Origin: an uncultured Clostridia bacterium | Lineage (GTDB): Bacteria; Bacillota; Clostridia; Christensenellales; UBA1242 | Assembly (NCBI GenBank): GCA_944349535.1 | Contig: CALVNA010000003.1 | Span: 1-53,074, forward strand | DNA: 53,074 nucleotides | Direction: 5' to 3' | Shown here: one piece after another, positions 349-49,912 of the stretch | How positions within the stretch are numbered: position 1 is the first letter of the stretch | How the letters are laid out: each line of letters opens with the position of its first letter | The notes under the pieces: generated by a model | Databases searched by the model: none | The model's input: only the letters and a program-made list of their open reading frames with translations | Told to the model about the DNA's origin: nothing | Program-made: the position numbers and the translations under genes

Positions 349-2427
349 ATGGCAAACAATCTAGAACTTACTAGAAATGTCGGCATTATGGCTCACATTG
401 ACGCTGGAAAAACCACAACAACTGAGCGTATTTTGTATTACACCGGCAAAAGCCACAAGATTGGCGAAGTTCACGACGGCGCTGCAACCATGGACTGGAT
501 GGCTCAAGAGCAAGAGCGTGGTATCACTATCACTTCTGCATGCACAACATGTTCTTGGAAAGGTCACAAAATCAACATTATTGACACTCCTGGACACGTT
601 GACTTTACAGTTGAAGTTGAGCGTTCTTTGAAAGTGCTTGATGGTGCTGTTTTGGTGCTTTCTGCTCGTGACAAGGTTCAACCTCAAACTGAAACTGTTT
701 GGCGCCAAGCTACAAAATACAAAGTGCCAACAATCATCTATGTAAACAAAATGGACAGAGATGCAGCTGACTTCTTTGGCTGTGTTGAATCTATTCAAAG
801 AAGACTTAAAACAAACCCATTGCCAATCCAAATGCCAATTGGTGAGGCTGATACATTCACGGGAATTATCGACCTTCTTACAATGAAGGCTGAAATTTAC
901 AAGGATGACATGGGAACTCAAATTGAAATCACTGACATTCCTGCAGAGCTTAAAGCAAAAGCACAAGAAGAGCACGACAAAATGATTGAAAAAATCGTTG
1001 AAACTGACGACGCACTTCTTGAAAGATACTTTGAAGGTGAAGAAATTTCAATTGACGAGCTTAAAAAAGCCATCAGAAAGGCAACAATTGCAAAAACTTT
1101 AACACCTGTTCTTTGTGGTTCTTCATATAAAAACAAAGGTGTTCAAATGCTTCTTGATGCGATGGTGGAATATCTTCCAAGCCCACTTGATATCGAATAT
1201 ATCAAAGGTATCAACCCTGAAACTGGCGAAGAAGAGGACAGAGCTCCTGACGAAAATGCTCCACTTGCTGGTCTTGCATTCAAAATTATGACTGACCCTT
1301 ATGTTGGTGGACTTACTTTCTTCCGTGTTTACAGCGGAAAACTTACTGCAGGCTCTTATGTTTACAACTCAAACACAGGCAAAACTGAAAGAGTTGGAAG
1401 ACTTATCAGAATGCACGCAAACAACAGACAGGAAATCACAGAAGTTGGCGCTGGTGACATTGCTGCCATCGTTGGGCTTAAAGACACAATCACAGGACAC
1501 ACTCTTTGTGATGAAAAACATCCAATTCAACTTGAAAGCATGGAATTCCCAGAGCCTGTTATTCAGCTTGCTATCGAACCTAAAACAAAAGATATGCAAG
1601 AAAAAATGGCTCTTGCTCTTGCAAAACTTTCAAGAGAAGACCCTTCATTTAGAGTTACAACAAACCAAGAAACTGGCCAAACTTTGATTGCTGGTATGGG
1701 TGAACTTCACCTTGAAATCATTGTTGACAGACTTCTTAGAGAGTTTAAAGTTGAAGCTACTGTCGGAAAACCACAAGTAAGCTATCGTGAAGCTATCAAG
1801 AAGGCTGTTAGAGCTGAAGGAAAATTCATCAGACAGTCTGGTGGTAAAGGTCAATATGGTCACTGTATCATTGAGATGGAACCTCTTGCTCCAGGCGAAG
1901 GATATCAATTTGTTGATAAAACAGTTGGTGGCTCTGTTCCTAAGGAATATATCCAACCTATCAACAATGGTATCAATGAAGCTAGAATGAACGGTGTTCT
2001 TGCTGGATATGAAACTGTTGACTTTAAAGTTACTTTGGTTGACGGTTCTTACCACGAAGTTGACTCTTCAGAAATGGCCTTCAAGATTGCTGGTTCTATG
2101 GCTTTCCAAGAAGGTGCAAGAAATGCAGATCCAGTGCTTCTTGAACCTATCATGAAGGTTTCTGTTGAAGTGCCTGATGAATATCTTGGAACAGTTATGG
2201 GCAACCTCACTTCAAGAAGAGGTATGCTTACTGGAACTGAATCTTCTGCAGGTATTCAAATTGTTAACGCTGAAGTTCCTCTTGCTGAGATGTTTGGTTA
2301 TGCAACTGACCTTCGTTCTCAGACACAGGGCAGAGGCAACTATGTTATGGAACCTCTTAAATATCAAGAAGTTCCAAAATCAATCGCTCAAAACATTATT
2401 GGTGAAAGAGCAAAAAACAAGCAATAA
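349..2427 (+). CDS. fusA: Elongation factor G
   Basis: [19 protein letters not shown] and NKMD GTPase motifs; 692 aa; AAGGAG RBS. Confidence 0.99.
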
Positions 2428-6063: not shown

Positions 6064-6735
6064 ATGGATTTTAAACTTGTAAAAGAAAATGGAAAATATT
6101 TTTATAAAGGAACAGACGGCAAGTTGTATGGTGAAGGATATGATGATGCTTGGAGTTTCTACGAAGGCTATGCTAGAGTAAAAAAAGGTGGCAAATGGTA
6201 TTATGTTGACGACAAAGATTTTAATCTTCATGGCGAAGGGTATGATGATGCGGATGATTTCAGCGAAGGCTATGCTCCAGTAGAAATATATGGCAAATGT
6301 TATTTTGTTGACAAAAAAGACTTTAAGCTTCATGGCGAAGGGTTTGATAAGGCTTTCGTTTTCAGCGAAGGCTATGCTGAAGTAAAAAAAGGTGGCGTTT
6401 GGTATTGTATTAACAAAGATTTTCAGATTGATGATGAAGACAGCGCTTTACGAGTTGCAGAGCAAGATATTAAAAAAATAAATGAAATAGCACCAAAATG
6501 TTTTTTGAATGAAGGTTTTGCTAAAGCTTTAAATGAAGTTATATATAAGCATAACACTCAAAAAATTGAAGAAATGGTCTACAGCAGACTGCTTAAACTT
6601 AAAGAAGAAATGGAAGAACCTTATAAATTGATTGAAAGCAAGAAGCAGGAAGCAGAAAAACTTAAACAAGCAAAAACAGATGCAAAAGAAACTTTTGACA
6701 AACAGTTTGGGAACCCAGATGATGAAAAAGAATAA
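6064..6735 (+). CDS. WG-repeat-like protein (3 repeats) with C-terminal helical/coiled-coil domain
   Basis: YDxAxxFxEGYAxVKKxGKWYYVD repeats resemble the WG beta-repeat (PF14903-like); no signal peptide. Confidence 0.8.
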   Translation: MDFKLVKENGKYFYKGTDGKLYGEGYDDAWSFYEGYARVKKGGKWYYVDDKDFNLHGEGYDDADDFSEGYAPVEIYGKCYFVDKKDFKLHGEGFDKAFVFSEGYAEVKKGGVWYCINKDFQIDDEDSALRVAEQDIKKINEIAPKCFLNEGFAKALNEVIYKHNTQKIEEMVYSRLLKLKEEMEEPYKLIESKKQEAEKLKQAKTDAKETFDKQFGNPDDEKE

Positions 6736-6768
6736 TTGAACAAAAAATTAAAGTTGAAATGAGCTAAT

Positions 6769-6876
6769 ATGAAAAAAGATAGTGAAGAGGAGCGATTGGA
6801 AGAGCTTAAAAAAAGTTTGCATGAACTAAACGATTTATATTTTGGCTCGAAGAAAGAACAAACAAAGAAAAAATAA
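6769..6876 (+). CDS. 35-aa micro-protein, copy 1 (MKKDSEEERLEELKKSLHELNDLYFGSKKEQTKKK)
   Basis: Same length and frame as the copy at 8782; lies between the WG gene and the terminator; weak RBS. Confidence 0.55.
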   Translation: MKKDSEEERLEELKKSLHELNDLYFGSKKEQTKKK

Positions 6877-6888
6877 ACAAGTTTTACA

Positions 6889-6927
6889 AAAAAAGAACAT
6901 ATTTAAATTGTCAATATGTTCTTTTTT
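6889..6927 (+). terminator. Intrinsic terminator, unit 1
   Basis: aaaaaagaacatat...atatgttctttttt. Confidence 0.8.
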
Positions 6928-6938
6928 GTTTTGTGATA

Positions 6939-7094
6939 GGAGATGATGTTTATGGCAAAGCTGAAAAGAACTTGAAAGGGCAACTTTTGCATTCTTATTT
7001 CATCCAGTTTAGCCATCCTCGCACAAATGAAATTATACATTTTGAAGCGGCATTGCCAACCTATTTTCAAAAATATCTTGACAAGCTGAAGTAA
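6939..7094 (+). pseudogene. Duplicated 3' fragment of rluD
   Basis: Encodes GDDVYGKAEKNLKGQLLHSYFIQFSHPRTNEIIHFEAALPTYFQKYLDKLK*, a diverged copy of 5827-5982; no start codon or N-terminal domains. Confidence 0.9.
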
Positions 7095-7179
7095 AGCGGC
7101 AAGAAATTATTTTGAAAAATCATGTCTTCTATTTAATATATCAAACAGCCAAGAAAAGATTGTTGAGCAGCAAAAGCTC

Positions 7180-7207
7180 TTGACAAATTGCAGAAGATGG
7201 GTATAAT
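7180..7207 (+). promoter_or_regulatory. Consensus sigma-A promoter of WG-like gene 2
   Basis: TTGACA-N16-TATAAT, paralogous to 6003-6030. Confidence 0.85.
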
Positions 7208-7240
7208 AAAAGTATCATAAAAAGATAAAGGAGAGAGAAA

Positions 7241-8746
7241 ATGGATTTTAAGGTTGTAAAAAGATATGGAAAATATTTTTATGAAGGATCAGACGGCAAG
7301 CTGTATGATAGTGTTTTCTCTTTCGGCGAAGGCTATGCCATGGGTTTTAAGTTTGTAAAAAGAGATGGAGAATTTTTTTATATAGGATCAGACGGCAAGT
7401 TGTATGATCGGGTTTCCTCTTCCGGCGAAGGTTATGCTGTAGTAAAAAAAGATGGCAAATGGTATTATGTGGACAAAGACTTTAATCTTCATGGCGAAGG
7501 TTATGATTTGGCTGACGATTTCATAGAAGGCTATGCTAGAGTAAAAAAAGATGGCAAATGGTATTATGCTGACGACAAAGATTTTAAGCTTCATGGCGAA
7601 GGGTATGATGATGCTTTGTCTTTCAACGAAGGCTATGCTAACGTAGAAAAAGATGGCAAATGGTATTTTGTAGACAAAGACTTTAAGCTTCATGGCGACG
7701 TGTATGATCATGCTTATGAGTTCCGCGAAGGCTATGCTGTAGTAAAAAAAGATGGCAAATGGTATTATGTTGACAAAAACTTTAAACTTTATGGCGAAGG
7801 GTATGATATAGTTAACGATTTCATAGAAGGCTATGCTGTAGTAAAAAAAGATGGCAAATGGTATTATGTTGACAAAAACTTTAAATTTTATGGCGAAGGG
7901 TATGATCATACTGGATATTTCATAGAAGGCTATGCTTCAGTAAAAAAAGATGGCAAATGGTATTTTGTTGATAAAGATTTTAAGCCTCATGGCGAAGGGT
8001 ATGATGATGCTAGCTATTTCATAGAAGGCTATGCTAGAGTAAAAAAAGATGGCAAATTCTATTTTGTAGACAAAGACTTTAAACTTCATGGCGAAGGGTA
8101 TGATTCGGCTGACGATTTCATAAAAGGCTATGCTAGAGTAAGAAAAGATGGCAAATGGTATTATGTTGACGACAAAGATTTTAAGCTTCATGGCGAAGGG
8201 TATGATGATGCTGGCTATTTCAGAGAAGGCTATGCTTTAGTAAAAAAAGATGGCAAATTCTATTTTGTAGACAAAGACTTTAAGCTTCATGGCGACGTGT
8301 ATGATCATGCTTATGATTTCTACAAAGGCTATGCTATAGTAGAAAAAGATGATGTAGATTATCATATTAACAAAAATTTTCAGATTGTAGATGAAGTTGC
8401 GGCTTTACGAGTTGCAGAGCAGGATCTTGGAATAATAAACGAAATAGCACCAGAGTGTTTTTTGGTTGAAGGTTTTTCTGAAGCTTTAGATGAAATTATA
8501 CATAAGCATTATACTCAAAAAATTAAAAAAACAACCAGCCCGGATGATGTGCTTAAAATTAAAGATGAACTGGAAAAGCTTAATAAATTGCTTGAAAGCA
8601 AAAAACAGGAAGCAAAAGAGCTTGAAATAAAACAAGCTGAATTAATTGAGCGCAAAAAACAGGAAGCAAAAAAACTTGAACAAGCAAGAACAGATGCACA
8701 AGAAACTCTTGACAAGCTGTTTGGCAACTTGAATGAAAAAGAATAA
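7241..8746 (+). CDS. WG-repeat-like protein (11 repeat units) with C-terminal helical/coiled-coil domain
   Basis: Eleven (E/K)GYA units, mostly 36-37 aa (108-111 bp), with near-identical DNA scaffold; C-terminal domain paralogous to 6064-6735. Confidence 0.85.
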   Translation: MDFKVVKRYGKYFYEGSDGKLYDSVFSFGEGYAMGFKFVKRDGEFFYIGSDGKLYDRVSSSGEGYAVVKKDGKWYYVDKDFNLHGEGYDLADDFIEGYARVKKDGKWYYADDKDFKLHGEGYDDALSFNEGYANVEKDGKWYFVDKDFKLHGDVYDHAYEFREGYAVVKKDGKWYYVDKNFKLYGEGYDIVNDFIEGYAVVKKDGKWYYVDKNFKFYGEGYDHTGYFIEGYASVKKDGKWYFVDKDFKPHGEGYDDASYFIEGYARVKKDGKFYFVDKDFKLHGEGYDSADDFIKGYARVRKDGKWYYVDDKDFKLHGEGYDDAGYFREGYALVKKDGKFYFVDKDFKLHGDVYDHAYDFYKGYAIVEKDDVDYHINKNFQIVDEVAALRVAEQDLGIINEIAPECFLVEGFSEALDEIIHKHYTQKIKKTTSPDDVLKIKDELEKLNKLLESKKQEAKELEIKQAELIERKKQEAKKLEQARTDAQETLDKLFGNLNEKE

Positions 8747-9498: not shown

Positions 9499-9708
9499 TT
9501 ATTTGCCGCAATTTCCACAGCTGTTGCAGCCACCGCACAAAAGCAAAAGAATCACAAGTGTGCACGCGTCCATTCCGCAGCCGCTATTGTTGTTGCAGCC
9601 ACAGCCGCAAAGACTTTGCAAAATGATTATCCAAAGGATAAGTGAGCATGGATCGCAGCAACTGTTGCAGCCGCCAAATCCACCTTGGCATCCATTAAAG
9701 AAATTCAT
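9499..9708 (-). CDS. Small Cys/Gly-rich membrane protein (clostridial 'chorion class high-cysteine'-like), probably spore-associated
   Basis: GGAGG RBS; two Cys-rich segments each followed by a hydrophobic helix; sigma-K-like promoter upstream; hairpin at 9460-9488 downstream. Confidence 0.75.
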   Translation of the reverse strand: MNFFNGCQGGFGGCNSCCDPCSLILWIIILQSLCGCGCNNNSGCGMDACTLVILLLLCGGCNSCGNCGK

Positions 9709-9761: not shown

Positions 9762-9789
9762 ATACTACGCAAGGAAAATAAAAAATGTG
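9762..9789 (-). promoter_or_regulatory. sigma-K-like promoter of the Cys-rich gene
   Basis: Minus strand CACA-N16-CGTAGTAT versus the mACm-N16-CATAnnnT consensus. Confidence 0.5.
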
Positions 9790-17922: not shown

Positions 17923-18186
17923 ATGTTTAATTTTTACGAAGAAATTAAAAGCCAATTAAAGAAAGCCCAACAAAACCTTTTAGCTTCTTACACCATGGTC
18001 AATCTTTCTGGAGCAATTTTGTATGTTGAAGGCCATCTTGGACTTACTGTGCTTTCGCCATCCTTGATTGCTTTTAAAATAAAAAAGGGAAGAGTTGAAG
18101 TGGAAGGTGAAGGACTTTTCTTAAGCGAACTGAGTCTGAATACTCTTAAAATAGAAGGCAAGATAAAAAGGGTGGAAGAATTTTGA
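17923..18186 (+). CDS. yqfC: YabP/YqfC-family sporulation protein
   Basis: LYVEGHLGL...VEVEGEGL.LSEL...LKIEGKI; directly before yqfD. Confidence 0.85.
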   Translation: MFNFYEEIKSQLKKAQQNLLASYTMVNLSGAILYVEGHLGLTVLSPSLIAFKIKKGRVEVEGEGLFLSELSLNTLKIEGKIKRVEEF

Positions 18187-19334
18187 TGAAAAGATATAAC
18201 CGCTCTCATTTTAAAATAAAGTCATTAAATCAGGAAAAACTGTTCAATAAAATTTGCAAACAGTTTGAACTTTATAATATCAAACAACAGGAAAATTTTG
18301 TTCAATTTGAAGTTGACGAAACTGACGCCGACAAAGTGGAAAAATACTTGCTTGAAAGCAATACCACAATTGAACAAGTCAAGCATAATGGATGGAAAAG
18401 AAAATGCAAAAATTTTTTTAAAAAATGGGGTATCATTGCAGGAATTTTGTGCGGCATAATTTTTTATTGCTTGCAATATTCTTTTGTTTTCAGAATTGAT
18501 GTTTGGGGTTGTCAAAACATTGGGCAGCAAGAGATTGTCAAATTTGTAAATGATCAACTTATTTCGAATTTTAAGCCCAACATTGACACTGAGAAATTGG
18601 AGCTTGAGCTCAAAGATAATTTTGAGCAGATCAGCTCGGTCAGCGTTGCTATCATTGGGCAAAGTTTGGTTGTCAACATCCATGAAGCCGTTTTGCCAGA
18701 AGAAATGCAAGGCAGTTTTCAGCCCATAGTCAGCGATTATGACGGGATGATAACTCACATCAATTTGATTCAAGGCACACCGAATGTCAAGGTTGGTGAT
18801 ATTGTTCAAAAAGGTGATGTTTTGGTTTATCCTTATGTTGCTGACGGAGAAGGTCAAGTTATGCCAGTTTTGCCAAGAGCAGAAATCAAAGCGGATGTTT
18901 GGCTGAGTGAAAATGAAGTATTTTATGAGTATCAAATCAAACAAGAGCGAACTGGAAGAAAAATAGAATGCGGAACAATCACTCTTTTTGGTCTTGAAAT
19001 TTATTCCAATCTCAGCGACAACACATTTGAAAATTATGAGAGTGAAAAAACAAGTTTTTATTTGACTCAAAACAATATTTTGCCTTTCATTTACAGCAAA
19101 ATCACATTTTATGAGACAAAAACCATTGAGATAATTCGAAATTTCGAGGAAGAAAAAGTTGAACTTTTTGAAAAACTTCGTCAAAAAGTCTTGATTTCTG
19201 TCGCCGAAAATGAGATAATAAAAGATGAAATGGTGTCGGTGAAACAAGGTGGAGGTGTTTATTACATCAACCTTATTTTAACCGTTGAAAAAGACATAGG
19301 AGAAGGTTATGGTTATATCTTTCCACAAAGCTAA
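18186..19334 (+). CDS. yqfD: Sporulation protein YqfD
   Basis: TM followed by IDVWG POTRA-like region; IVSDYDGMI...GTPNVKVGDIVQKGDVLV motif. Confidence 0.9.
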   Translation: MKRYNRSHFKIKSLNQEKLFNKICKQFELYNIKQQENFVQFEVDETDADKVEKYLLESNTTIEQVKHNGWKRKCKNFFKKWGIIAGILCGIIFYCLQYSFVFRIDVWGCQNIGQQEIVKFVNDQLISNFKPNIDTEKLELELKDNFEQISSVSVAIIGQSLVVNIHEAVLPEEMQGSFQPIVSDYDGMITHINLIQGTPNVKVGDIVQKGDVLVYPYVADGEGQVMPVLPRAEIKADVWLSENEVFYEYQIKQERTGRKIECGTITLFGLEIYSNLSDNTFENYESEKTSFYLTQNNILPFIYSKITFYETKTIEIIRNFEEEKVELFEKLRQKVLISVAENEIIKDEMVSVKQGGGVYYINLILTVEKDIGEGYGYIFPQS

Positions 19335-19791: not shown

Positions 19792-20620
19792 TTTTGGATA
19801 CGTTGCCGTTATTGGCCGTGCAAATGCAGGAAAAAGCAGCTTGGTCAACGCTTTGGTGGGGCAGAAAGTTGCCATTGTGACCAACAGACCACAGACAACT
19901 CGCGACAATATTTTGGGGATTTTAAATGGAGAAACTTATCAAGTTGTGCTGGTTGACACTCCTGGTGTGCATCGAAGCAAAAACAAACTTGACAAATCGA
20001 TGATGAAAAATGTGCGAAGTGCAATTTCTGGGGTGGATCTTATTTTGTATCTTGCGGATGGAAGCAAAATCTTTGATGAAGAAGAGCAGCGATATTATCA
20101 AAACTTGCCATCGCCAAAAGTGCTTGTGAAAACAAAAGTTGACAAGAAAAACATTTCGTCTTTTGAAAGCGACTTTGAAGTTTCATCACTCTCCGGGCAG
20201 GGGCTTGAACAGCTTAAAAATTTTATCATCGACAAGATGCCTAAAAGCCAAGTCAAAAATTTTATGTTTGATCAAGATTATTATACCGACAAAAGTGTCA
20301 GATTTATTATTGCAGAAGAAATCAGACAAAACGCCTTAAATATTTTATCCGATGAAATTCCGCATGGCATTGCAGTTGTGATTGAAAGATTTGAAGAAAA
20401 ACCTGATATTGTTGTGATAGATGCAACGCTGATTGTTGAAAAAGAAAGGCATAAAGGCATCGTGATCGGCAAAATGGGCAAGACTCTTAAACAGATTGGA
20501 CAAAACGCTAGAAGCTTTGCTCAAGAGCTTTTGGGCAAAAAAGTTTTACTGAAAATTTTTGTCAAGGTTGACGAAGATTGGCGCAACAAAGAAAACAGTT
20601 TAAAACAATTTGGTTATTAA
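19784..20620 (+). CDS. era: GTPase Era
   Basis: GRANAGKS, PQTTR, DTPG, EIPH and KH-domain GIVIGK.G..LK.IG motifs. Confidence 0.97.
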   Translation: MYSFGYVAVIGRANAGKSSLVNALVGQKVAIVTNRPQTTRDNILGILNGETYQVVLVDTPGVHRSKNKLDKSMMKNVRSAISGVDLILYLADGSKIFDEEEQRYYQNLPSPKVLVKTKVDKKNISSFESDFEVSSLSGQGLEQLKNFIIDKMPKSQVKNFMFDQDYYTDKSVRFIIAEEIRQNALNILSDEIPHGIAVVIERFEEKPDIVVIDATLIVEKERHKGIVIGKMGKTLKQIGQNARSFAQELLGKKVLLKIFVKVDEDWRNKENSLKQFGY

Positions 20621-20643
20621 AATCGCATATTTGCGATTTTTTT
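20618..20643. terminator. Bidirectional terminator era/murB
   Basis: aaaatcgca-tatt-tgcgatttt. Confidence 0.75.
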
Positions 20644-21508
20644 ATTTTATAATTTCAACATCATATTCAAGTTCAATTCCAAAATTTTCTTTCACTTTTC
20701 TTTTTGCAAGGTCTATAAGAAAATCAAAATCTTCAAATGTTGCATTGTTTTGGTTGAGAATGAAATTTGCGTGTTGTTCTGAAATTTTCGCTCCGCCATG
20801 GCACTGTCCTTTAAGACCGCACTTGTCAATCAACAGCCCGGCGCTTTGAGTTGTTGTATTTTTGAAAGTGCATCCAAAACTTCTGCCAAAAGGCTGTGTT
20901 TGTTTTCTTTTCGAACAAACTTCAAGGTATGTTTTTTGAATTTTGCAAGGATCAGTTGTTTTAAGCTTGAAGTTTGCAGATATGATTATTTCTGGATGAT
21001 AAAACCGGTTTTTCAAAAAAAATGAATTATGATAACCTTTTTCAATTTTGTTTTTGCTTATAGTTTTGATTTTGTTATCTTGAAAAACAGTCAAATTTTC
21101 CAGGTTATCGAAAATGCTTTCGCCATAACAGCTGGCTCCACTTGCGATTGCTCCACCAATATTCCCTGGAATTGAAGCAAGTTTTTCAAAACCACTTAAG
21201 CCGTTTTTCAGACAAAATTGATAGGCGTCAAACAAGGTTGTTGATGAAGAAAATTTGACTAAATTATCTCTTTTCGACATTTTTTTTGCAATTTTTCTGG
21301 TTGAAATCACGAAAAAAGGATGGAAATCATCACTAAAAAGCAAATTCGTTCCATTTCCAATCACTTTGAAGGGAAGGTTTTTATCATAAAGCTTTTTCAG
21401 GAGCTTGATAAATTCTTCATTTGTTTTTGGCATAAAAATTCCAAGGCAACTGCCGCCTATTTTTACACTTGTTATTGCTGCAAGTGAAGTTTCAACATTT
21501 CTATTCAT
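20642..21508 (-). CDS. murB: UDP-N-acetylenolpyruvoylglucosamine reductase
   Basis: KIGG, IGNGTNLL, GLSGFE.LASIPGNIGG, SFGCTFKN, AG.LID.CGLKG and SEQHANF motifs; ATG at 21508 with no SD. Confidence 0.92.
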   Translation of the reverse strand: MNRNVETSLAAITSVKIGGSCLGIFMPKTNEEFIKLLKKLYDKNLPFKVIGNGTNLLFSDDFHPFFVISTRKIAKKMSKRDNLVKFSSSTTLFDAYQFCLKNGLSGFEKLASIPGNIGGAIASGASCYGESIFDNLENLTVFQDNKIKTISKNKIEKGYHNSFFLKNRFYHPEIIISANFKLKTTDPCKIQKTYLEVCSKRKQTQPFGRSFGCTFKNTTTQSAGLLIDKCGLKGQCHGGAKISEQHANFILNQNNATFEDFDFLIDLAKRKVKENFGIELEYDVEIIK

Positions 21509-21513
21509 AGTCA

Positions 21514-21541
21514 AATATATGAAAGATCTTCTTTCAGTGTT
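21514..21541 (-). promoter_or_regulatory. sigma-K-like leaderless promoter of murB
   Basis: Minus strand AACA-N16-CATATATT, ending 5 nt before the ATG. Confidence 0.55.
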
Positions 21542-21545
21542 AAAG

Positions 21546-21574
21546 CACCTTTTTTCGTTATTGGCACATATAGT
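21546..21574 (+). promoter_or_regulatory. sigma-K/E-like leaderless promoter of murC
   Basis: CACC-N17-CATATAGT, ending 6 nt before the ATG; no SD. Confidence 0.55.
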
Positions 21575-21580
21575 GTTTAT

Positions 21581-22933
21581 ATGGATTTTATTGATATTGC
21601 AAAAGAATTACATATTTTGGGTATTGGTGGGATCAGTCTTTCCGCTTTGGCTGTGATATTAAAAGAAGAAGGCAAAGTTGTAACAGGCTATGACAGAGAG
21701 GTCTCGCCAATCACGCAAGCCCTTCAAGAAAAGGGCATTTTGGTTGTCAATCAATTTGATGAAAAATTGATAGATCAGGCAGACATTGTGGTTTATACAA
21801 GTGCTCTGCCAAAAGATGAGCCGCATCTTGCATATGCAATAAAAAAAGGCAAAATAATATTATCAAGATCTGAGCTGCTTGGTCAGCTTGCAAAAAAATA
21901 CTTCACCATTTCAATAGCTGGCAGCCATGGAAAAACAACTGCAACTTCTATGATCGGTTATATGTTTTTTCTTGCAGGCAAAGATCCCACCATTCATGTT
22001 GGTGGCATAATGAAAAACTTTGGCAGCAATGTTTGCGTTGGTAAGGGGAAGTATTTTATCACAGAAGCTTGTGAATATAAAGACAGTTTTTTAAGCCTCG
22101 CAAGTGATATAGGGGTTGTGTTGAATGAAGATCCTGACCACTTAGATTATTTTAAAACTAAGGAAAATTATTATAAATCTTTTGAAAAATTTGCAAAAAA
22201 CACAAAAAAAGGTGGAATTTTGATTGTAAATTATGATGATCCTTTTTCGCGTGGCTTAAAAAGCGGCAACACATTGTCATATGCGATCAAAAGCAAAGCC
22301 GATGTGCAGGCTAAAAATATTTGCAGAAAAAATGGTCTTTTAAGTTTTGATCTTTTTTACTTAGATTTAAATTTTGGAAATTTTAAGTTGAAAATGATTG
22401 GTCTGCATAATATCTACAATGCTCTTGCAACTATTGCTGTTGGCATTGCCTGCTCAATACCACTTGAAACAATTAAGACTGCTCTTTTGCAGTTTGAAGG
22501 TGTCGATCGGCGGCTAGAATATATAGGACTGGTCAAAGGAGCAGTGGTTTTGCATGATTATGCACATCATCCAGATGAAATCATAGCAACGATTAAAGCG
22601 GTAAAGAGCAACACTAATGACAGATTGATTTGTGTTTTTCAGCCACATACTTTCTCGCGAACTCGTGATTTGTATTATGAGTTTTGCCGCTGCTTTGCTT
22701 GTTGTGATGAAGTTTGGCTTTTGCCAATCTATTCTGCCAGAGAAAAACCTATACCAAAAATAACATCAAAGTTTTTGGCAAAAGGAGTTTCAAAATATAA
22801 TAAAATTGTAAGATATTTCTCAAATTTTGAAAAATGCTATGCTTTTATAAATAAAACAGCCAAAACAAACACAACTTTTTTAATTATGGGTGCAGGAGAT
22901 ATTTTTAATCTTGCTTATCGATTCAAAAAATGA
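21581..22933 (+). CDS. murC: UDP-N-acetylmuramate--L-alanine ligase
   Basis: GIGGISLS, AGSHGKTTAT, EACEY, DHLD, HNIYNA, DYAHHP, FQPHTFSRT and MGAGD motifs. Confidence 0.96.
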   Translation: MDFIDIAKELHILGIGGISLSALAVILKEEGKVVTGYDREVSPITQALQEKGILVVNQFDEKLIDQADIVVYTSALPKDEPHLAYAIKKGKIILSRSELLGQLAKKYFTISIAGSHGKTTATSMIGYMFFLAGKDPTIHVGGIMKNFGSNVCVGKGKYFITEACEYKDSFLSLASDIGVVLNEDPDHLDYFKTKENYYKSFEKFAKNTKKGGILIVNYDDPFSRGLKSGNTLSYAIKSKADVQAKNICRKNGLLSFDLFYLDLNFGNFKLKMIGLHNIYNALATIAVGIACSIPLETIKTALLQFEGVDRRLEYIGLVKGAVVLHDYAHHPDEIIATIKAVKSNTNDRLICVFQPHTFSRTRDLYYEFCRCFACCDEVWLLPIYSAREKPIPKITSKFLAKGVSKYNKIVRYFSNFEKCYAFINKTAKTNTTFLIMGAGDIFNLAYRFKK

Positions 22934-49611: not shown

Positions 49612-49639
49612 AACCTTTTGTCTGTTTTTTCCATAGTAT
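49612..49639 (+). promoter_or_regulatory. sigma-K-like promoter of collagen-like remnant
   Basis: AACC-N16-CATAGTAT. Confidence 0.6.
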
Positions 49640-49673: not shown

Positions 49674-49912
49674 ATGTTTAATTGTTGTAGTAATAATTGC
49701 AGGCCCAATTTTATTCCTGTAAGTTTTGTAACAACTCCATCAGTTACAGGTCCTGCAGGTCCACAAGGTCCAACAGGTCCGAGGTGACTCTTGAAGTTGT
49801 TTTGGAGCTTAAAGCTGGAAATGTTGTTAAGTTTAAGCAAACCGGTGCGTCAATGGGTTGTTCTCTTGGGAATATGAAGGTAAATATTCAGAAAATGAAT
49901 ATCGGAGAATAG
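49674..49912 (+). pseudogene. Internally deleted, frameshifted collagen-like (BclA-type) spore-surface gene
   Basis: AAGGAG RBS; MFNCCSNNCRPNFIPVSFVTTPSVTGPAGPQGPTGPR* (stop 49785-49787); the -1 frame continues EVTLEVVLELKAGNVVKFKQ...NIQKM, resembling the end of a C1q/BclA C-terminal domain. Confidence 0.6.

Follow-up and report, generated by a model that had tools for sequence, protein, structure and literature searches.

In Bacillus subtilis, sigma-K is said to control the supply of peptidoglycan precursors for the spore cortex, as Vasudevan and colleagues reportedly described in 2007. Peptidoglycan confined to one stage or place and growth without a sacculus are familiar from the chlamydial division ring and from L-forms. 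Here we analyze a 53,074-nucleotide (nt) stretch of DNA from an uncultured Clostridia bacterium (UBA1242, Christensenellales; contig CALVNA010000003.1 of assembly GCA_944349535.1, positions 1 to 53,074; hereafter the window), in which the divergent wall-precursor genes murB and murC are each preceded by a sigma-K-like motif, together with the clade of Christensenellales families without MreC (mreC-less families) in which this genome falls. The likeness to B. subtilis is a mother-cell sigma factor that raises the supply of Mur enzymes for the cortex; there, however, the same genes also serve an essential vegetative wall, whereas in the mreC-less clade the sigma-A promoter of murC and the elongasome have apparently been lost, the former by replacement, and members that lost sporulation have deleted the pathway as well. 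Chlamydiae and L-forms tie peptidoglycan to division or lose it under stress, whereas in the mreC-less clade it would be reserved for the dormant spore.

Two further systems are close. According to excerpts of one study, the pair formed by a protein of the SEDS type (shape, elongation, division and sporulation) and a class B penicillin-binding protein (PBP) in the dcw cluster of Clostridioides difficile is SpoVE-SpoVD, which works in sporulation and is dispensable for growth, and there is no FtsW-FtsI (PMC10693644). The mreC-less clade has a SEDS/class B pair of the same type; C. difficile retains essential RodA-PBP2 and PBP1 to build a vegetative wall, as those excerpts have it, whereas the clade has neither MreC nor a second SEDS protein and only two PBPs, both of which can be lost. 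Among Bacilli, the gut lineages RF39, RFN20, ML615J-28, Anaeroplasmataceae and Mollicutes, with small genomes, are described in excerpts of another study as having lost peptidoglycan and sporulation genes jointly, wall genes never having been lost without sporulation genes, and retained peptidoglycan genes are read there as a thin vegetative wall (PMC10868615). The word "promoter" is absent from the text of that Bacilli study. Joint loss is common to both groups, and the mreC-less clade adds a proposed intermediate, wall-less but spore-forming, on the way from a walled spore former to a Mollicute-like cell. We know of no bacterium that grows wall-less yet forms a peptidoglycan-armoured endospore; the parts are known, and the arrangement, if confirmed, would be a cell type new to our knowledge. 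In the literature searched, with subscription papers mostly outside it and with excerpts of PMC10868615, PMC13155120, PMC11257099 and PMC12516126 among it, no statement of spore-restricted peptidoglycan was found for any lineage.

Promoters of murB, murC and other wall genes

The murB gene (20642..21508, minus strand; UDP-N-acetylmuramate dehydrogenase by Pfam and by TIGR00179, 188.5 bits against a cut-off of 144.5) and the murC gene (21581..22933, plus strand; UDP-N-acetylmuramate--L-alanine ligase, TIGR01082, 417.5 bits against 335.1) both encode full-length proteins above their NCBIfam cut-offs and are the only copies found. Direct reading of the 72-bp spacer between them (21509-21580) bore out the layout given in the earlier note: a putative sigma-K-like leaderless promoter of murB (21514..21541, minus strand) consisting of AACA (21541-21538)-N16-CATATATT (21521-21514), 5 nt from the ATG at 21508, and one of murC (21546..21574, plus strand) consisting of CACC (21546-21549)-N17-CATATAGT (21567-21574), 6 nt from the ATG at 21581, with no Shine-Dalgarno (SD) sequence ahead of either gene. 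Between era and the end of murB, a terminator-like hairpin with a T run (20619..20640, plus strand), found by pattern match, probably closes the era operon and would block its read-through towards murC. The sites exceed what chance would give: the strict pattern CATAnnnT-N4-7-ATG precedes just 7 of 695 genes in the source genome, murA, murB and murC among them; since the pattern was derived from murB and murC, only murA is an independent match. Genome-wide, it is no commoner than the background of 0.6% per ATG, and no significant association was seen between carrying the motif and being absent from G047, a relative that has no sporulation sigma factors (5 versus 2 genes, p=0.29).

Because every CATAnnnT box holds the sigma-A core TAnnnT, the sigma types can be separated only by the -35 element and the two bases before the hexamer. 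A sigma-A model trained on 445 upstream regions of G047 has TTG at frequencies of 0.97/0.88/0.75, a 17-nt spacer, and C two bases before the -10 element at 0.02. A mother-cell (sigma-E/K) model, seeded with the mother-cell consensus, was trained on 23 upstream regions of sporulation genes chosen by homology, with no mur gene included. The -35 element is ATA in sigma-E promoters and AC in sigma-K promoters, about 16 nt upstream of near-identical -10 boxes, according to excerpts of PMC3789822; the mother-cell sporulation genes yqfC-yqfD of the window (17923..19334, plus strand), with ATA-N16-CATATATT upstream, served as a sigma-E-type internal reference. In the source genome (829,801 bases in 50 contigs, 83.7% complete, 723 genes called), sigma-A/mother-cell scores in bits were 6.3/11.5 for murB, 3.7/10.2 for murC, 5.4/11.5 for murA, 6.1/10.7 for murG and 4.0/9.7 for the class A PBP gene, and 14.4/4.0 for ftsA, 12.8/2.0 for ftsZ, 9.7/3.7 for divIB and 12.9/6.7 for minD. 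Scores of single genes are weak evidence, since recA is high on both models (11.6/11.4). The true start of murA has CATATATT 5 nt upstream. The scan for sigma-A, sigma-E and sigma-K promoters that the earlier note had proposed thus gave mother-cell-type sites for murA, murB, murC and murG, although not for the head of the murF operon, discussed below. Among the candidate regulators, the best matches in the source genome are SigE-like (adjoining spoIIGA) and SigK-like, the latter above one subfamily cut-off and the former above none; sigK is extended at the N-terminus and stands behind a mother-cell-type promoter, and its product probably needs processing.

To follow the sites beyond one genome, we used the relatives grouped with the source genome (the family, 301 genomes, with subsets of 101, 61 or 55 for some proteins) and, for murC, the best 30 of 100 matches (36-45% protein identity); P values across relatives overstate significance. 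CATA lies 4-7 nt before the murC start in 28/30 loci, with a GATA variant in one more, and at this distance in only 5 of the 445 upstream regions of G047. None of the 30 loci has an SD sequence. The -10 sites carry the C of CATAnnnT in 28/29 cases and the final T in 19/29, and the -35 region has C at -18 in 22/29 and T in 0/29, which is the AC type of sigma-K rather than the ATA type of sigma-E; this C is less strict in other families (13/29). TTG stands at the sigma-A -35 position in 3/29 sites, and the sigma-A score exceeded the 90th percentile of the null in 0/30 loci. The promoter travels with murC, because the gene neighborhood varies and murB is adjacent in three close relatives only. 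For murA, the mother-cell score exceeded the null 90th percentile in 18/30 loci and the sigma-A score in none. Upstream of murB in the relatives at L144, L145, L147, L148, L152, L153, L155 and L163, a sigma-A-like TTGAAA-N17-TAAAAT directly abuts an in-frame ATG, and its spacer ends in an SD-like GGAG/AAGG.

Wall-gene inventory, MreC and joint gene loss

The genome-wide count of wall genes that the earlier note had also called for was carried out with Pfam on the 38 open reading frames (ORFs) of the window and 683 of 684 others, one ORF of 5695 amino acids (aa) being too long. The source genome has the complete gene set for endospore formation (spo0A, four sigma factors, spoIIIA, spoIVA, spoVA, ger and cortex enzymes) and single copies of murA-G, mraY and ddl. 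It further encodes a single SEDS protein, a single PBP of each class (A and B), and D,D-carboxypeptidases and SpoVB-like flippases, two of each. The SEDS protein scored 364.8 bits as SpoVE, 356.2 as FtsW and 279.2 as RodA, the class B PBP 559 as SpoVD and 329 as MrdA, and both flippases best as SpoVB, each best match falling below its cut-off. There are four Mur ligases (C-F) and no Mpl; since MurC is the sole L-Ala-adding ligase, restricting MurC would restrict the whole pathway. The mreB gene sits in ppx-mreB-minD-minE, with no mreC, mreD, PBP, minC or rodA between. No match to sortase, SLH or LCP was found at E<=1e-7 in this genome, which is 84% complete. UBA1242 has been described as having genomes near 1 Mb with sporulation genes (PMC12306168).

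Single copies are the rule across the relatives. MurB has exactly one match in 296/301 family genomes, the same count as SpoIVA; MurA is single in 58/61, with two pieces in two genomes; a SEDS match is present in 98/101 genomes, each of which has one full-length copy; the class A glycosyltransferase has one copy in 53/55; and 111 of 121 genomes of the order have a single MurC match. MreC was found in 1/101 family genomes, on a contig of 11.5 kb that shares few homologs with the source genome (L187, G039:C22), either a foreign contig or a transfer. MreB diverges fast (29-49% identity; L177:8508-9518, L008:2127-3125), and an ESM Atlas look-up returned MreB_Mbl clusters only. The alr gene, missing from the source genome, is present in 5/5 better family genomes. 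Among five near-complete family genomes, no full-length GlmU was found; four (G029, G088, G171, G023) have a lone C-terminal half of about 210-225 aa, and two have a weak match to glutamate racemase. In L178 (G002:C27), the SEDS gene and the end of murA lie in inverted orientation with respect to murE-mraY-murD, possibly by misassembly.

We then compared 121 Christensenellales genomes from 38 sampled families. MreC is all-or-none by family, present in 59/61 genomes of 21 families and in 0/60 genomes of 17 families. For the promoter comparison, 32 murC loci from 14 mreC-less families were chosen once the MreC distribution was known but before their promoters were seen and joined with 3 earlier ones (35 loci, 15 families); family f29 was left out owing to a contig edge, and 34 murC loci spanning all 21 mreC-bearing families (26 top matches and 8 picked) served as controls. 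A leaderless CATA precedes murC in 25/35 mreC-less loci (29 with A/G variants) and in 0/34 mreC-bearing loci, and the sigma-E/K score exceeds the sigma-A score in 32/35 and 6/34, respectively. TATAAT and an SD sequence lie ahead of murC in 26/34 mreC-bearing loci. The position of the CATA motif is fixed in 16 families, GC-rich ones included. Transpeptidase (PBP) matches number two in 54/60 mreC-less genomes, one in three and none in three, and 3-9 in all 61 mreC-bearing genomes. A quick tree of the MurC N-terminus (73 rows, with 16 of the 17 mreC-less families; unrooted and from one gene) separates mreC-less from mreC-bearing families on one branch with a Shimodaira-Hasegawa-like approximate likelihood ratio test (SH-aLRT) support of 97; end branches are longer on the mreC-less side.

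Within the family, just one of the 301 genomes, G047 (11 contigs, 933.5 kb, listed as 100% complete), has neither SpoIVA nor MurB. A tblastn search with the 723 source-genome proteins against the whole of G047 found 415 but no murA-G, mraY, ddl, SEDS gene, either PBP, either carboxypeptidase, uppP or either flippase, and no cwlD, pdaA/B or spo/ger genes; sigE/F/G/K also are absent (three sigma-70 region-2 matches against seven). It keeps ftsA, ftsZ, the DivIB-like gene, mreB and uppS, and minD, minE and sepF are gone along with sporulation. The losses fall within contigs: a mraZ-like gene, rsmH and a gene at the ftsL position lead straight to divIB-ftsA-ftsZ, with spoIIGA-sigE-sigG missing, der-plsY lacks spoIVA, and floA...ybeY-era lacks yqfC-yqfD. 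Its congener G087 retains mraY, murD, murA, spoIIGA-sigE-sigG and spoIVA in place. The persistence of a DivIB/FtsQ-like POTRA protein (L174:12618-13403) and of uppS in G047 is noted although the peptidoglycan synthesis genes are gone.

Three genomes from three other mreC-less families (G344, G348, G378) are without SpoIVA and all transpeptidases and have 0-2 weak Mur-domain matches, true Mur ligases apparently being absent. The absence of peptidoglycan synthesis genes that marks a Mollicute-like cell therefore holds for G047 and apparently for these three, and not for the source genome with its full mur set. In the mreC-bearing families, the 16 genomes (7 families) without SpoIVA all have 3-9 PBPs, and 14 have a murC match. 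Counted by family, PBPs were kept despite the absence of SpoIVA in 7/7 mreC-bearing and 0/4 mreC-less cases (Fisher p=0.003). Loss of sporulation abolishes the need for peptidoglycan inside the mreC-less clade and not outside it.

Four family genomes with MurB and without a SpoIVA match (G002, G094, G113 and G292) resembled counter-examples but were read as assembly gaps, since SpoIIIAE is present in three of them and G002 encodes Spo0A together with six sigma factors. G339 and G357 gave no murC match at E<=1e-60, yet SpoIVA and Mur ligases are present in both; G397 likewise has SpoIVA and two PBPs. G358 (mreC-bearing family f20, 98% complete) has no SpoIVA, murC or MreC match and three PBPs, where f20 has 6-8.

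Proposed course of wall loss and competing explanations

From these gene contents and upstream sequences we consider it likely that in the mreC-less clade peptidoglycan is essentially spore material and that growing cells have little or no wall. The earlier note had proposed this for the one lineage, and it finds support in the single gene copies, the apparent loss of the elongasome, a change of promoter that tracks the mreC-less clade, and the four joint losses; we infer from these the sigma factor that reads the promoters, the timing of expression and the wall-less phenotype. In the proposed course, the ancestor of the 17 gut families would have lost the machinery for its vegetative wall, including MreC, RodA, the elongation PBP and other PBPs, and its single murC would have come under a leaderless promoter of the late mother-cell (sigma-K-like) type in place of a housekeeping one, a change that murA, murB and murG would have followed in the source genome. 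Late in sporulation, sigma-K would transcribe murC into a leaderless mRNA, so that muramyl-peptide precursors would be made in the mother cell, which is the supplier of cortex precursors according to excerpts of PMC11513918. SpoVB would flip lipid II, the only SEDS/class B pair, of SpoVE-SpoVD type, would polymerize the cortex, and the only class A PBP, probably expressed in the forespore, would build the germ cell wall. Growing cells, equipped with the fast-evolving MreB and with sigma-A-driven ftsA, ftsZ and the DivIB-like gene, would divide by FtsZ/FtsA with little or no peptidoglycan, and in a lineage that dropped sporulation the pathway would become useless and be deleted as well.

A number of observations weigh against this proposal. 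The earlier note's statement that the spacer has no recognizable sigma-A -10 element was too strong: TATAGT and TATATT each match TATAAT at 5/6 positions, the murB site reads TTAACA-18-TATATT and matches the sigma-70 consensus at 10/12 positions with an 18-nt spacer, and weak vegetative transcription is possible because CATAnnnT contains the core TAnnnT. In the source genome, the head of the murF-ddl-murE-mraY-murD-SEDS operon fits neither model (6.2/4.4 bits; the corresponding region fell outside most ddl loci), an extended sigma-A -10 element precedes the ftsL-like gene that lies before the class B PBP, and a protein with a weak SH3 domain sits behind a sigma-A-like TTGACA-17-GATAAT. In the family, only 13/30 murB loci have the leaderless CATA site and 8/30 have strong sigma-A-like TTGAAA-17-TAAAAT-like sites; read-through into murC is possible in 4/30 loci, with 10 left undecided by this crude scan; and in several relatives a mraZ-rsmH promoter could serve the dcw genes. 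Upstream of the class A PBP gene, the forespore model exceeded the null 90th percentile in 10/29 loci, so that the promoter leans towards the forespore type as a modest call. Three of the four joint losses come from assemblies of 40-140 contigs, and the mreC-less clade is a single evolutionary event.

Some of these points would also be accommodated if growing cells kept a thin or septal wall, as small cocci without an elongasome, with sigma-A (or an early-active sigma-K, as in some clostridia) reading the same promoters weakly, the class A PBP polymerizing, and the sigma-K-like site merely boosting cortex supply as in B. subtilis. The sigma-A core within the -10 box, the sigma-A-like murB sites, the sigma-A-like promoters of ftsA, ftsZ, divIB, PAP2 and the ftsL-like gene, the SH3-domain protein and the retention of the class A PBP in 53/55 genomes fit such cells, and excerpts of PMC10693644 provide a precedent, in that a class A PBP alone suffices for division in C. 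difficile. We nonetheless regard a thin wall, the main competitor, as unlikely, given that the four clade genomes without SpoIVA that were studied closely lost every PBP whereas PBPs were kept in 16/16 such genomes of walled families, that murC sites lack TTG and have CA fixed, that the class A PBP upstream region exceeded the sigma-A null 90th percentile in 0/29 loci, and that sigK has the extension and mother-cell-type promoter that suggest a need for processing. Cells might alternatively run the sporulation program every generation and inherit a sporulation-made wall, in the manner of Epulopiscium, Metabacterium and segmented filamentous bacteria, which reproduce by internal offspring; the near universality of sporulation genes in the family (SpoIVA in 296/301) and the disappearance of minD/minE and sepF with sporulation in G047 would agree with this. 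Relatives without both programs exist and retain ftsA/ftsZ, however, spoVA, ger, sleB and dacB make up a full dormancy set in the source genome, and an inherited wall presumably could not grow without an elongasome or vegetative precursors, so we hold this to be quite improbable. Least probable of all is that the mur genes of the window are sporulation-specific paralogs, the alternative named in the earlier note, or that the pattern arose as an artefact because the assemblies are incomplete and AT-rich. The 50-contig, 84%-complete source genome without alr, and a motif that is AT-rich and not enriched genome-wide, would leave room for it, but a second MurB was found in 0/296 genomes, so that copy counts refute the paralogs, the motif keeps its position even in GC-rich families, and the gaps in G047 lie within contigs flanked by conserved neighbors.

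Our broader proposal is that the 17 of 38 sampled families form one clade whose growing cells are naturally wall-less, with peptidoglycan for endospores only, as a stable intermediate, and we lean towards it, including its account of the bloom of Ca. Borkfalkia after ceftriaxone if that genus belongs to the clade. We presume that Ca. Borkfalkia stood beside UBA1242 in the former order 4C28d-15, and the genus was not named among the sources in our homolog searches or cluster look-up. Excerpts of PMC8035907 place UBA1242 and CAG-917 in that order. Ca. Borkfalkia is assigned to Christensenellales. Excerpts of PMC6839795 report a more than 1,100-fold rise of the genus one day after ceftriaxone, beta-lactamases that gave E. 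coli no protection, and the judgement that spores alone were an unlikely cause; a gene list with wall genes was not found in its supplements. A second Borkfalkia species rose to 63.5% following a cephalosporin (bioRxiv 2025.02.07.636470, in excerpt). Such antibiotic blooms agree with a wall-less grower, if the genus is in the clade; in that case the cells of 1.5 x 0.8 um seen by fluorescence in situ hybridization, which are rods (PMC6839795, in excerpt), would speak against it.

Other features and what the proposal would mean

The earlier note had placed the murB-murC motif before two spore-surface genes as well. At 49612..49639 (plus strand), AACC-N16-CATAGTAT indeed precedes an ORF of collagen-like GPxG repeats (49674-49787) that stops after 37 codons behind this sigma-K-like site and whose role is conjectural; the site at 9762..9789 (minus strand) instead reads ACA-N16-CGTAGTAT, not CATA, ahead of a 69-aa Cys/Gly-rich ORF (9499-9708) without a Pfam family that is likely a spore-surface gene. 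A longer collagen-like gene lies at L048:2-697 with ACA-N16-CATATTAT. The K/F/I/N/C-richness ascribed to MurB and MurC holds for peptidoglycan enzymes against housekeeping proteins (10 versus 35, p=6e-4) but is no sign of sporulation, because sporulation proteins as a class are not rich in these residues (22 versus 35, p=0.72). As for wall anchors, LPxTG was indeed found in 0/15 proteins of at least 1200 aa, whereas two of the three giant proteins of the window have a membrane segment at their end. Much of the 830-kb genome is occupied by large proteins that look secreted or membrane-bound, about a dozen of 1,300-5,700 aa and mostly without a Pfam family (contigs C1, C3, C6, C10, C14, C16, C18, C28 and C30), and the window also encodes two WG-repeat proteins (6064-8746; 223 and 501 aa), the second with at least 8 repeats and a coiled tail.

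Elsewhere in the source genome, the weak SH3 domain (below cut-off) belongs to a 218-aa protein (L003:6913-7566) with DnaA boxes upstream and without a match in G047. Second copies of EF-G (L064:222-2297 and window 349-2427) and of hslUV-thiF (L067 and L010:17387-19912) suggest slight strain mixing, and part of the S10/spc operon is missing. Extra paralogs of the Spo0A C-terminal domain occur at L014:18764-19162, L065:755-1201 and L223:7717-8025; a Spo0A_C match alone misleads, because one such paralog survives in the non-sporulating G047.

Surveys of gene content would score genomes of the mreC-less clade as walled because mur genes are present. RF39 and Anaeroplasmataceae, which likewise combine mur with spo genes, are open to the promoter test used here. 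If the proposal is true, it would outline a path of wall loss in Firmicutes, first from the growing cell and later together with the spore, and these bacteria would serve as a natural model of wall-less division by FtsZ/MreB. The wall of growing cells is probably slight or absent, and such cells would ignore penicillin-type antibiotics; intrinsic indifference to beta-lactams, fosfomycin and vancomycin would be predicted for common members of the animal and human gut flora, as would little exposure to NOD1/NOD2 or lysozyme. It would also suggest why bacteria of the mreC-less clade resist culture.

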